Shown here piece after piece: positions 519 to 46,011 of a stretch of 64,000 bases of DNA. The notes beneath the pieces were generated by a model. That model searched no databases. It had not been told where the DNA came from and saw only the letters and a list, made by a program, of their open reading frames with translations. The stretch is taken from NCBI GenBank assembly GCA_964016885.1, contig OZ024743.1, positions 317,812,001-317,876,000 on the forward strand. The letters are read 5' to 3'. Within the stretch, counting starts at the first letter, position 1. Each line of letters begins with the position of its first letter. This DNA comes from Eledone cirrhosa. Lineage: Eukaryota. A program made the position numbers and the translations under genes.

Positions 519-679
519 GTTAAAAGAATAGAGGTGTAACACACAAGTTATTATATATTGGTAAACGGAATAGAAAATGCTGACAAATTGTTCACAGTTG
601 AAAAATGGTTTAATTAGGAATAAAAGAGTATTAGTGATTGTATGGGTTAGTATTCAGTTGTGGTTTTAAGTTTTTAAGC

Positions 680-716
680 TTTTACCGGTTGCGCATTTCT
701 AAATGCTTTTCAAAAA
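680..716 (-). ncRNA. Degenerate minimal hammerhead motif (U3-A8 core, GAAA->GCAA)
   Basis: Minus strand reads TTT-TTGAAAA-GCATTT-AG-AAATGC-GCAA-CCGG-TA-AAA; same layout as 42094-42129. Confidence 0.6.
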
Positions 717-1711
717 TAATTTTGAGATAGAGTGTTCGTGCTGTTTGCTCTGATCTGATTAGTTTTGGGAATTCTACCTGTTTTTATGTTAAAAAAGTGG
801 CTCCAGCGTTATTTTTGTGTTGCAAAAATGCTTGTGGTCAAAACAATTTTGATTGGTCGGTAGAGGTCATGTGAATGTAAAAAGTTGATTTTGCGCCAAG
901 ACTGTTTTTATGTTAAAATGTTAAAAAAGTGGCTCCAGCAAAAATTCTTGGTCAAAACAATTTTGATTGGTCGGTAGAGGTCATGTGGATAAAAAATTGG
1001 TTTTGCGCCAAGATTGAGAAATGACTCTTTCACAACAAATATGTGTGTGTGTGTGTATGTATGTGTGTGTGTGTATGTGTGTGTGTGTGTGTGTGTGTGT
1101 GTGTGTGTGTGTGTGTGTGTGTGTGTGTGTGTGTATATGTGTGTGTGTGTGTGTGTGTGTAGTAGTAGTAGTAGTAAGGTGTTCGATGCGGCGACAATGG
1201 CCAGCAGCGATGTGTGTCAAATGGCTATTAAGATAAGTGCGTGTGTGTGAGTGTGTGTGTGTGTGTGTATATAGCAGAGTCATTCGAAGGTCAAAAGATA
1301 TTTTTCAGCTTTTGTCTTATACGGAGAAGTGCGTGTGTGTGTGTGTGTGTATAAGTCTCTTTGTATGTTGATGTACGCGTGTGTATGTGTTTGTGTATAT
1401 ATGTGTGCGTGTGTGCGTGTGTGTGTGGGTGGACCAGTATTTTTTCCCCCTGGTAAAATGGTGTACATTATTCGATTTTTTCAGTAAAATCGGTTCTCTT
1501 AATAGAACATCAAAAATCTTAACAATAAAAGGTGTGAAATGATATTCACTATATATATATACACACATACATATATTCACTACATATATATATATATATA
1601 TACACATATATACATACATATATATGCACATATATTTTTTTGTATATATGTGGGTAGAGATGTGTGCTGATGTAGGTATGTATGTTGACGTGTGTATGTT
1701 GTGGGTTCTTC

Positions 1712-2570
1712 TTAGGGAGAAGTGTTTAGACGGGGTCCGTATTTGTTAATGAAGTAAGATTCCTTGCTGATGCGCTGGGTGTGGGTGGCATTATCTTTAA
1801 ATTTGTAGAGGGGAAAGATTCTGAAGTTGGGATGATTTTGGGCGGCACAGGTATCAATGTGTTCACTCAGTGGTATTTTCCTGTATTCCCGTATTTTAAT
1901 TTGGGATCTATGGACAGTCATGCGTTGGCGGAGGCTGTTTTTGGTCTGGCCTATGTATTGTTCTCGACAACCTGAACAAGTTAATACATATATTAGATTT
2001 TCCGATGCACATGTGAAATTGTGTTTTACTATAAAACGTTGTCCATCTTTGAAATAGAATTCCGAACCCTCTATTAGGTTGATGCAAATGCCACAGTTGG
2101 GTCTATCGCATTTTTTTACTGTGGGTTTCGTTGTTGTGGTTGGCAGTACTTTGGCATGTGTTAAGATGTTTTTCATTGACTTGGATTGTCTTTTGCTCTT
2201 TATGATATCGTGTGTTCGTAGAATTTGGTTCATTCTATGGTCCTTTTTCAATACAGGGATGTTCTGGAGGATGGTGTCAAAGGCCTCATTGTTGAGGGGG
2301 TTGTGTGTGGAGATGTATGGAAGAGCTTTTAGTTTTGGTTGATTTACTTTAGGATGTCTAAGGTCCTGGGTACTGAGTTTTAGGGCACGTTGGATTCCAT
2401 TGTCAATTAGTGATGCAGGGTAGTCCCTGCCTATGAGTGTGTCCTTTAGTTCTTGTAGCCGTAAGTAGCAGATGTTTTTATTGGAGACTATAGTACAGAT
2501 TCTCTTGGCTAAGTTGTAGGGAATATTAATTTTAACGTGTCTAGGGTGGCAAGAGTTGAAGGGGAGGTAT
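1712..2570 (-). pseudogene. PLE RT thumb + GIY-YIG endonuclease fragment
   Basis: ORF track 1712..2251, with the frame open upstream to the inversion junction near 2570. Confidence 0.85.
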
Positions 2571-42129: not shown

Positions 42130-45100
42130 TAGAGTTGAGATGGAGGGTCTGTGGTTTTTCTCACATCTGGTTGGTCTCTGAATGTTACTTGTTTTATATG
42201 GAAAAAGTGGCTCGAAATGCCAGGTTTTTCGAGAAGTAATTTGATTGGTTTGTCAATAATTATAATAAATTTTGCGCCAGTTCGCGTTACAATAGTTCTT
42301 CAAATAAGAAGGGGGGGTGTCACAGGTTGTTTTTTCATATATGAGTGTTTGAATTTCTTTTTACTTGAAAAAAAAGGGGCTCACGAAGGCTTTTTTTTTA
42401 AAATAAGCGTAATTTGATTGGTTATAAATGAAATTATGGCTGTCACGTGAACAAGTTTTCATTAAATTTTCGCGCCCTTATTTGGAAATCCATTCTGTAG
42501 CCTTTTTAGAGAATTTTATGATAAGTAAAAGATAATGGTCAAGAGAAATGGGATGGGAGAATTGTTCTGGTTCAGTGAATATGATTAGTTCGCTGGGGTG
42601 TCAGAATTCAGATTTTCTATTGAATAAAGAAAGTAAAGATATGTATGTTTATTTGTGTGCTTGTGTGTGTGTGTGTGTTGTGTGTGTGTGTTTGAATTTC
42701 TTTTTACTTAAAAAAAGGTGGCTCACGAAGGCTTTTTTTAATAAACGTAATTTGATTGGTTACAAATGAAATTTGGCTGTCACGTGAACAAGTTTTCATT
42801 AAATTTTCGCGCCCTTATTTGGTAATCTATTCTGTAGCCTTTTTAGAGAATGTTATGACAAGCAAAAGATAATGGTCAAGAGAAATGGGATGGGAGAATT
42901 GTTCTGGTTCAGTGAATATGGTTAGTTCGCTGGGGTGTCAGAGTTCAGATTTTCTATTGAAGTAAAGATATGTATGTTTATTTGTGTGCTTCTGTGTGTG
43001 TGTGTGTGTGTGTGTGTGTGTGTGTGTGTATTGGAAGATGATTCTATTAGTAGAAATGGGGGACGGAGTTGTGTGTGTGTGCGAGTATGTTAAGATGGAG
43101 AGAATATATATTTTGTGTGTGTGTATATGTGTGTAGGAAAGTGGTTCTATTAGTAGACATGGGGGAGGGAGTTGTGGGTGTGGGGGTTGTTATGTGTGTG
43201 TATGGGTGTTATGTGTGTGGGAGTATGGTTAGCATGTTAAGATGAAGAGAATATATATATATATATATATATATATATATATATATATATATATATTGTG
43301 TGTGTGTGTGTGTGTAGGAAAATGATTCCTTTAGTAGGAATATTTTTGAATGAACATATTTTCCTTACTTATTCGTATTTGTTCTGTTGTATTGTCAGTG
43401 CAAATGTATATTAAGGTTTATTTAGTTCGGGTTTTTATTTTCTAAAGTAGGTGTTATGTGTGTGTGTGTATGTCATATTATGGTGTTGACGTAATGTATA
43501 TTAAACCATATTTAATGCTGGTCTATATTTTTGAATAAACATATTTTCCTTATTTATTCGTATTTGTTCTGTTGTATTGTTAGCGCAAAGGTAAAATGGG
43601 AAGACTTGGAACTTGCGCAAATGTCTAGATGTGGGCTTAGTGGTATCTGTCTCGTGGTTGGATCTCGTAATTGTTGGCGATGAACTGTCATTCTGTTTCT
43701 GAGTGTGAGTTTAGTTTGTCCTATATAATCTTCATTGAATCCTTTACATTTAATGGCATAAACTAGATTTTTTGATGAGCAAGTGAAGTGATTTTTTACA
43801 GTAAAATTTTGTCCTGATTTAAATGTATACGTGTTGCCTTCAATGAGGTGAGTGCAAGTTCCACAATTAGAGCGATCACATTTTGTTATACTTGGTTGTG
43901 GGTTTGTGGTAGGTAATTTGGCATTGGTGAGTAATGTTTTCAGTGATTTCGGTTGTCTTTTGCTTTTGATTATTTTGTGTGTTTCAAGGGTTTTTTTCAT
44001 TCTTGGGTTTTGTTTTAGTAGTGGGATGTTCTTGTGAATAGTGTTGTAAGCTTCCGCAATTCTTGGGTTGTGTGTTGAGATATATGATAGAATATTGGAC
44101 GTACCTTGAATTTGTTTCTGTTTCCGTAATTCATCAATGCCTATTGCTTTAGCCCTTTCTATTCCATTATTTATTAGTAATAGTGGGTACTCTCTCTCGA
44201 GTAGAATTTCCTTTAATTCTTGAAGTCTTTTATTTCGCGTTTCATAATTGGAGACAATTGTGCAAATTCTTCTTGCTAGGTTAAAAGGAATGTTCGTCTT
44301 CGGTGGTTGGAGGTGATTAGCAGGTATTGTTTGGGATCTGTTGGTTTGTAGTGTATGTCAGTTTCGATATTTGTGTCTTTTTTTAAGATTAAGATGTCCA
44401 GAAATGGGAGTTGATCTTGGCTGTATTCCATTGTGAATTGGATGTGGTTATTGATGCCGTTTATTAAGTTTTTGAAATCCTTCAGTTGGTCGAGTGTGTG
44501 GGACCAAAGAATGAGACAATCATCCAAGTAGCGTTTCCAATTCTCTGATAAGTATTTGTGGAAGTTCAATCCGTATTTTGATTTGGACTGTTCATATATC
44601 TGGACTTCTAAGTATGCCATGACTAAGTTGGCATAAGTTGGAGCGGCTTTTGTACCCATCGCAGTCCCCGATATTTGCTTGTAAGTATTGCCATCGAAAT
44701 CAAAAAAGTTGTTCTGTAAGATGAATTTTAATCCCTCGGTGATGAAGCTTTTTTCTATTCTGTCAGGTATCTCATTGGGATATTTCTCTAGCCAGAATCC
44801 TATTGCTTCTAGCCCGTATTGGTGTGGGATCGTTGTGTAGAGATTCACTACATCGAAAGACACAATAATAGTGTCGTTGTTGACATGTTTGGGGAGGTGG
44901 TTTAAGAGGTCCAGATCGTCTCTTACAAGGCTTGGTATATGTTTGAGAATTGGTTTCAGTAGTATGTCTATAAAGTTGCTCAGTCTGTGTGTTTCACATT
45001 GTGGGCCCGATACAATTGGTCTTAATTTAAGGTCTGTGGGGTATTGTGTGTTCACGCAGGCTGAGGTGGATTGTTTACAGGCATCGTTAATTATTTTACA

Positions 45101-45833
45101 CTTGTGGATCTTCGGAAGTCCGTAAAGGTTGCTGGTTTTGTATTCAAAATTTGTTAAATAATCGCGTTCCTTTTTAGTTAGGTCTTGCTGGTATCGATAA
45201 ATCAGTGTGTTTAATCTGGTCATTGTTTTTGATTGCTGGTAGTTTTTTACTCTTTCATAATAATTAGTAATTTCTAAGAGAGAGAACATAGAATTTTTAT
45301 ATTTTTCAGCCTCCATAATGACAACAGTACTTCCCTTGTCCGCTTCCTTAATTATAATGTCCGTATTATTTTTTAGTTCATGGATAATCTCCCATTCCCT
45401 TCGACTTGTGTTGGGTTTGGGTTTAGGTTGCGGTAGTTCATGGTATGGGAAGGTAGCTATGTGGTCACAAAATTTGTCCAGAACTCTGTTTCTACCTTTT
45501 GTTGGGTTGTAGCTGCTTTTATTCCGTACAATTGATTCGTCGTTATTCTCTTTGTCAAAGAATTCCTCTGTGAGACGTAATTTTCTACAGAACTGTGAGA
45601 TATCGTCATTTATCTCATTGGGGTTAGAATATTGTGGTGTTGGTGTGAATTTCAGTCCTTTGGAGAGAAGTTTTACTTGTTGGATGAGAGGTTTGTATTT
45701 GAAAGGTTGATTATTTTCGGTTTTTCCATTGTATTTGAAAGGTTGATTATTTTCACTTTTTCCATATAAAACAAGTAACATTCAGAGACCAACCAGATGT
45801 GAGAAAAATCACAGACCCTCCATCTGAACTCTA

Positions 45834-45869
45834 CTTTTGAAAAGCAGAAGAACTGCGAAACCGGTAAAG
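45834..45869 (+). ncRNA. Minimal hammerhead ribozyme, U3-A8 variant (inverted copy)
   Basis: Identical motif on the plus strand. Confidence 0.75.
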
Positions 45870-46011
45870 GAACCAAATAAATATATATATTTTTTAAAAA
45901 AATAAGACTCCAGTTGCATTTTCGATTTCATCTTTTTTTTCTTTTTATATATATATATATATATATATATATATATATATATATATATATATATATATAT
46001 ATATATATATA

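Follow-up and report, generated by a model that had tools for sequence, protein, structure and literature searches.

Known Penelope-like element hammerheads and the Eledone cirrhosa window

Penelope-like elements (PLEs) are known to carry minimal hammerhead ribozymes in their pseudo-long terminal repeats (pseudo-LTRs), with a palindromic stem III through which a partner motif is needed; in the work of Cervera and De la Pena from 2014 (PMC4209133), dimer and trimer constructs cleave weakly and the monomer does not. By analyzing a 64,000-nucleotide (nt) stretch of the Eledone cirrhosa genome (assembly GCA_964016885.1, contig OZ024743.1, positions 317,812,001 to 317,876,000, forward strand), hereafter the window, we found nine such motifs distributed over six units, named A to F. 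An earlier note on this DNA, made from its letters alone, had assigned them to PLE pseudo-LTRs and suggested that cleavage may need a partner, a reading that seems supported and is in print for PLEs. We consider it probable that several PLE families of this genome harbor minimal type I hammerheads in their pseudo-LTRs that would cut RNA only as a double hammerhead, i.e. one formed by two motifs on the same transcript. All comparisons with the literature concern the compared parts of the cited papers.

With the PLE hammerheads of PMC4209133, those of E. cirrhosa share the type I topology, the CUGANGA or U3-A8 core, an extra base before stem II and the palindromic stem III, together with the many families per genome, the opposite-strand pairs and the predominance of truncated copies. 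The unit D hammerhead agrees with the published PLE consensus, and a UUGAAAA core is found in the Schistosoma row 4 of the published alignment. Two differences are the C at position 13 (C13) in family A, whereas the cores in the compared part of that alignment all end in GAAA, and the 116-nt stem II of unit E; the same part holds no cephalopod-like rows. Many families per genome and stems III of 3-4 bp, some of them shared, are also described for the Hydra-clade PLEs (Craig et al. 2021, PMC8557442, File S2), as are U-U or extra bases at stem II and (TA)n targets, and an octopus family is among those listed there. Four of the five Hydra-clade protein motifs (DKT, the CxCX5C linker, CxxC and CxH) are present in unit E, but RWK is absent, stem II is much longer, and the unit, at about 7 kb with a 3' region of 4 kb, contrasts with published elements mostly under 3 kb.

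The Anolis Poseidon element (Frangieh et al. 2024, PMC11167929) likewise has a hammerhead near the junction of pseudo-LTR and reading frame and a one-sided tail. Uncut RNA is its main template, with no reads at the cut site, which was seen in vitro there and is suggested by genomic copies here; its frame starts in stem II, whereas that of E starts about 490 nt after C3. Lastly, short non-coding derivatives of PLE pseudo-LTRs that bear hammerheads are described as non-LTR retrozymes (bioRxiv 10.64898/2026.07.22.740005). By analogy, unit B may be of this sort, although the retrozymes form head-to-tail tandem arrays whereas B and the short E copies are single or head-to-head.

The units in the window

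The nine motifs and the PLE remnants associated with them are as follows, with predicted cuts given as window positions.

519..1711, minus strand: unit A 3' untranslated region and pseudo-LTR, adjoining (TA)n; inner limits approximate
680..716, minus strand: unit A hammerhead; U3-A8 core, C at position 13, stem I of 3 bp, stem II of 5-6 bp, stem III ACCGGU; predicted cut after 683
1712..2566, minus strand: C-terminal part of the unit A PLE protein, with CX4CxxC linker and GIY-YIG endonuclease (PF01541, E 7e-7); 5'-truncated
2572..2710, plus strand: inverted partial copy of the A pseudo-LTR, 99% identical to 552-690; it begins within the core and thus holds no complete hammerhead
2765..2830, minus strand: unit B hammerhead, inverted copy; repeat arm 2715-2871
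3158..3223, plus strand: unit B hammerhead; CUGAUGA core, stem I of 8 bp, stem III AUAUGUAU; predicted cut after 3215; repeat arm 3117-3273 and, after it, a one-sided tail
3635..3673, minus strand: unit C hammerhead; CUGAAGA core, U-U at the stem II base, stem III AGUACU; predicted cut after 3640
4067..4627, minus strand: unit C endonuclease-region remnant; 37-40% to the A and F proteins by tblastn
24710..26279, plus strand: unit D reverse transcriptase and endonuclease remnants in several frames; weak GIY-YIG (E 0.009)
26749..26784, plus strand: unit D hammerhead; CUGAUGA and an extra A, stems I and II of 4 bp, minimal stem III ACGU; predicted cut after 26780
27816..27970, minus strand: unit E hammerhead; it lies in the 3' pseudo-LTR, in sense, some 4.2 kb past the reading frame, and a tail follows
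32226..33767, minus strand: C-terminal 514 residues of the unit E PLE protein, 99.6% to the 813-residue frame of a whole E unit elsewhere (locus L272); Hydra-clade-like motifs
35230..35384, plus strand: unit E hammerhead, inverted copy; stem I of 10 bp, stem II a hairpin of 116 nt, stem III ACGAUCGU; predicted cut after 35374; genomic copies frequently have their 5' end at 35233
42094..42129, minus strand: unit F hammerhead; U3-A8 core, GAAA, stem III ACCGGU; predicted cut after 42097; arm 42015-42209
43557..45781, minus strand: unit F PLE protein with reverse transcriptase (PF00078, E 2e-7) and GIY-YIG (PF01541, E 2e-5) in two frames
45834..45869, plus strand: unit F hammerhead, inverted copy; arm 45754-45947

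Of the six units with different pseudo-LTRs that had been proposed, all are present, except that A and F turned out to be related (75% identical around the motif, 54% in protein, and with the same ACCGGU), and that no reading frame could be linked to B. The placement proposed for the motifs, in sense and downstream of the reading frame, was borne out with one motif per coding unit, 3' of the PLE protein remnant in A, C, D, E and F. The second B, E and F motifs lie in inverted copies, the usual PLE arrangement (PMC8557442). For the same five units, a sense frame with reverse transcriptase and C-terminal GIY-YIG, as in endonuclease-bearing (EN+) PLEs, was found upstream. Partial tandem or inverted pseudo-LTRs, the one-sided tail and microsatellite targets are also those of PLEs. 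The CX4CxxC linker that precedes GIY-YIG in the A and F proteins conforms to the CX2-5CxxC of Neptune and Nematis (PMC8557442), while a regular expression for that linker found none in the unit D fragment. At unit C loci, a sense PLE hit occurred upstream in 19 out of 30, and the motif itself was identical in 29 of 40 copies. Searches for a frame linked to unit B found none among thirty 3-kb and twelve 10-kb loci, the single upstream hit among the 30 being a separate head-to-head pair. Like PLE fragments, B has (TA)n flanks and a tail on one side, and its two copies stand head to head.

Detection and genomic density of the motifs

Each of the nine coordinates in the earlier note corresponds to the low end of a type I minimal hammerhead motif. 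The core C3-U4-G5-A6-N7-G8-A9 (or U3-A8), with G12-A13-A14-A15.1 and U16.1-H17, is present in B, C, D, E and F. Stem III is a short palindrome in all nine motifs, where palindromes or near-palindromes had been stated, only that in D and E it consists of ACGU and ACGAUCGU, respectively, the outer letters that had been counted in being core A14 and U17. A descriptor composed of the core, stem I, stem II and NUH, in which the palindrome was not required, gave 11 hits in the window, nine of them palindromic and identical to the listed motifs, compared with 1.8 hits, 0.03 of them palindromic, per shuffle in 30 local shuffles; the two non-palindromic hits are at chance level. As the descriptor was shaped on the same motifs, the window figure is partly circular, and the independent test is that of 800 kb elsewhere, i.e. 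80 evenly spaced 10-kb stretches on four chromosomes. These had 117 hits, 75 of them palindromic, while three shuffles had 25-42 and 2-4, respectively. A stricter version of the descriptor recovered six of the nine window motifs, and a looser scan of the window found no further convincing hammerhead motif.

The sampled stretches harbor approximately one motif per 11 kb, which makes nine in 64 kb unremarkable (P about 0.15). The wide variety of cores within 46 kb that had been pointed out is, like the density, typical of this genome; the window is an ordinary one, and its motifs belong to an already published kind. At least 20 further hammerhead clusters (loci L301-L380 and others) have palindromes of 4 to 10 letters, some with U3-A8 cores and other palindromes.

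Conservation and covariation

Compensatory changes, proposed earlier as a check, were found in both sets of aligned relatives, which had been collected by homology. Among twelve relatives of A and F, hand-picked out of 107 copies, 95% of the cells were paired and eight double changes occurred, including a U-A/C-G swap in stem I, and none out of 500 shuffles was as high. The B clade, represented by 16 relatives out of 105, had 93.7% of cells paired and 20 double changes, all in stem II, again with no shuffle as high. Relatives of E, compared by eye, keep the core, stem I and the palindrome while stem II changes in sequence and in length (42, about 100 or 116 nt); C was without divergent relatives.

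The cores were also more conserved than their flanks, contrary to what would have spoken against the ribozymes: departures amounted to 10 in 1,648 core cells vs 308 in 16,318 flank cells when five families were represented by their 30 best copies each, the cells not being independent. The inner palindrome letters, in turn, depart more than the flanks (25 of 600 cells). In contigs from three runs, which are silent on RNA ends, unit E differences above 10% all lie outside the fixed core positions.

Genomic copies and their 5' ends

All six families are large. A first look yielded between 131 and 975 candidates per family for A-D and F. With exact 16-letter matches, a pattern search for unit E gave 8,712 genome-wide, vs 3 controls, and unit A has 6,258 exact matches. 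Copies with a hammerhead on either side of the frame in direct order exist for both: one locus (L272) is a whole E unit with hammerhead, tail, 813-residue frame, 4 kb of untranslated region and hammerhead, and another (L382) has the order hammerhead, reading frame, hammerhead for A, with the frame split in two. Within the window itself, none of the units has a pair of motifs of one family on the same strand. Being truncated or inverted leftovers that lack a same-strand partner of their own family, the window's copies are probably inactive in place.

Many copies begin at fixed points upstream of the core. On chromosome 1, the first 100 exact E matches include 30 whose start lies at -8 to -4 from C3, in 15 cases exactly at -7, the edge of stem I; these 30 represent 19 insertions, of which 11 are head-to-head pairs. 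The remainder extend at least 220 nt upstream (37) or are scattered (33). Genome-wide, 1,753 E matches have a foreign letter before -7. Copies of A begin at -49 to -33 in 19 out of 56 cases (12 of 40 stretches chosen as pairs), and small clusters of 5' ends were also found in B, C and F. The cut site gave a different picture. A search aimed at E copies starting there had 561 matches, and the 30 that were inspected comprised 27 whole motifs and three junctions; this pattern and that for -7 differ in stringency, so their counts compare only roughly. Position 17 in the 27 copies keeping the core was A (26) or C (1) and never G. For A-D and F, one out of 113 secondary copies starts at the cut site. 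Given fixed 5' ends upstream of the core and no pile-up at the cut site, we infer that genomic copies are mostly made from uncut RNA.

The 5' start points resemble what we take to be initiator words (a YYANW pattern, recognized post hoc). Penelope transcription starts inside its pseudo-LTR (PMC2377424), and together these make a transcription start the likeliest cause of the fixed 5' ends, a stop of the reverse transcriptase being conceivable instead.

Ten head-to-head A pairs on chromosome 1 have identical spacing (110 nt between match starts), and their joint is close to a short palindromic word some 42 nt before the core, on its upstream side. At two loci (L218 and L235), an antisense E copy runs into the sense tail via the stem I word that both share, as a template switch at stem I would produce. 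A cap-derived extra G at the 5' end was considered and rejected: a G stands at 11 of 30 junctions, but several of these belong to the inverted partner, and the G is absent from three copies that directly adjoin (TA)n.

Family A and its C13 core

Unit A departs from the type I core at position 13, where A is part of the hammerhead consensus (PMC3088659), and C13 is fixed in its family, as 98 of the first 100 copies out of the 6,258 matches carry it. Copies of A are 97-100% identical, and an intact 784-residue frame lies beside a C13 motif at one locus (L387). We file unit A as a core variant descended from an F-like motif; for this family, either cleavage would be dispensable or C13 tolerated. 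A literature search found no paper on 'A13C' and, by title, no relevant heterodimer paper. Variants at A13, and heterodimers as well, may already be treated in Lunse et al. 2017, and the supplements of PMC4209133 (file 1) and of the bioRxiv paper, like Figure 5 of PMC3088659, may have a bearing on C13.

With more than 6,000 young copies carrying C13, and with a sister family, F, that has the same palindrome and a normal core, family A may constitute a natural experiment on whether PLE hammerheads have to cut. We suggest tentatively, and regard it as doubtful, that reverse transcription in several families proceeds from an internal start until it reaches a fixed 5' end of the RNA just before an uncut hammerhead, which would give short head-to-head copies by the thousand. 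In that case the hammerhead would serve as a structure at the 5' end that need not cleave, or else C13 would be an unreported active core. The pair of A (C13) and F (A13), together with the sharp 5' ends, lends itself to cheap, direct tests of whether cleavage matters for PLE hammerheads in vivo and of where transcripts start.

Proposed mechanism and alternatives

From the observed motifs, palindromes, covariation, 5' ends and tandem copies with a hammerhead before and after the frame, we infer a start site, a dimer and cleavage that would act together as follows. Transcription would start just upstream of the first hammerhead, so that a full transcript would hold two. The self-complementary stems III of both motifs would pair in cis, pairing and cutting probably being helped by the element's own protein (protein-assisted hammerhead cleavage is reported in PMC11167929), and a cut after NUH would release unit-length RNA. 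Genomic copies that span the cut site would have been copied from uncut RNA. Homodimer stems III are predicted to be stable, at -1.7 to -10.0 kcal/mol.

Several observations weigh against this double-hammerhead reading. The number of pairs with a double change is not above that of the shuffles (272 and 163 of 500 for A/F and B, respectively), the shuffles ignore relatedness, and the departures counted in the flanks include shared subfamily changes. Copies do not pile up at the cut site, and family A thrives with C13. In monomers, furthermore, the hammerhead fold is predicted to lie 0-7 kcal/mol above the lowest-energy fold, with family A the worst.

In a different view, in our opinion an unlikely one, the hammerhead fold persists chiefly because it forms a structure at the transcript 5' end that does not cut but acts as a signal (for the promoter, for protein binding or for reverse transcription), and transposition can do without cleavage. 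The near-identical C13 copies of family A with their intact frame, the E copies ending at the stem I edge and the rarity of starts at the cut site (at most three of the 30 enriched E copies) agree with it, as does the Anolis element, where catalytic mutants were without effect on insertion in vitro (PMC11167929). Cut products may, however, be degraded or too short for copying, so that their absence proves little, and family A could be a tolerated variant. The catalytic positions and the NUH rule are moreover kept across 47 clusters and in relatives, although partly by descriptor design. That the motifs are instead chance matches in AT-rich repeats is scarcely credible. The short stems (stem I of 3 bp in A and F) could be taken that way, as could an Rfam scan of the window with no hammerhead family among the best 150 of 236 rows, but the palindromic hits outnumber those of the shuffles by far, covariation is found in A/F and B, and the motifs sit at a consistent position in PLE ends.

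The earlier note had further proposed that the palindromes act as family-specific pairing codes. That such a code has been selected, permitting homodimers (in trans as well) while keeping other families out, is improbable, even though 14 of the 15 window family pairs have unfavorable in-register stem III duplexes (+2.9 to +9.5 kcal/mol, predicted) and 16 different palindromes occur among 23 clusters. Within the window, A and F share one palindrome, ACCGGU, and the predicted A x F duplex equals either homodimer (-8.3 kcal/mol). In the 23 clusters with at least two members (24 singletons out of the 47 clusters being dropped), 14 had a compatible partner vs 4.2 by chance, and 11 out of 253 cluster pairs were fully cross-complementary vs 2.4 for random palindromes (P 0.0006), much of it by descent. 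A B cluster even carries two cross-compatible palindromes, with 32 and 25 members, and a code also sits poorly with the variable inner palindrome letters. Elsewhere, ACGU is common to many species across phyla and to several families of one genome (PMC4209133), and one stem III to five Hydra families (PMC8557442). Sharing by descent is what drift without diversifying selection gives, and divergence alone accounts for the failure of the window families to cross-pair; with both motifs in cis, the full transcript of a tandem copy would have no need of a code. The palindromes thus appear to be inherited along lineages and to drift, with the absence of cross-pairing as a by-product and a family-specific code unlikely.

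Other features of the window

A non-LTR retroelement with two long frames, which we take to be R4/Dong-like, lies at 4797-8222 on the minus strand; it has a reverse transcriptase (PF00078, E 9e-15), zf-RVT and, by eye, a restriction-like endonuclease-type motif. A decayed relative at 61354-63013 is situated inside an 850-nt inverted repeat (60045-60890 / 63158-64000). Two broken LINE-like elements, 69% identical to each other over 3.2 kb, are found on the plus strand at 10744-16360 and 18714-23849, with ORF1 and endonuclease/reverse transcriptase frames. An AT-rich 320-nt palindrome with flanking duplications, but no hammerhead, occupies 38225-38730. A dispersed repeat of about 200 nt with a tRNA B-box-like word, presumably a SINE, occurs at 9369-9495, 9733-9941, 39350-39796 (with a head-to-head pair at 39350-39778), 51223-51436, 52088-52484 and 58016-58489; ARAGORN identified no tRNA in the window. 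The sole host-like gene seen in the window is an uninterrupted 285-residue frame with a TLC domain (PF03798, E 1e-19) at 55608-56462 on the minus strand.

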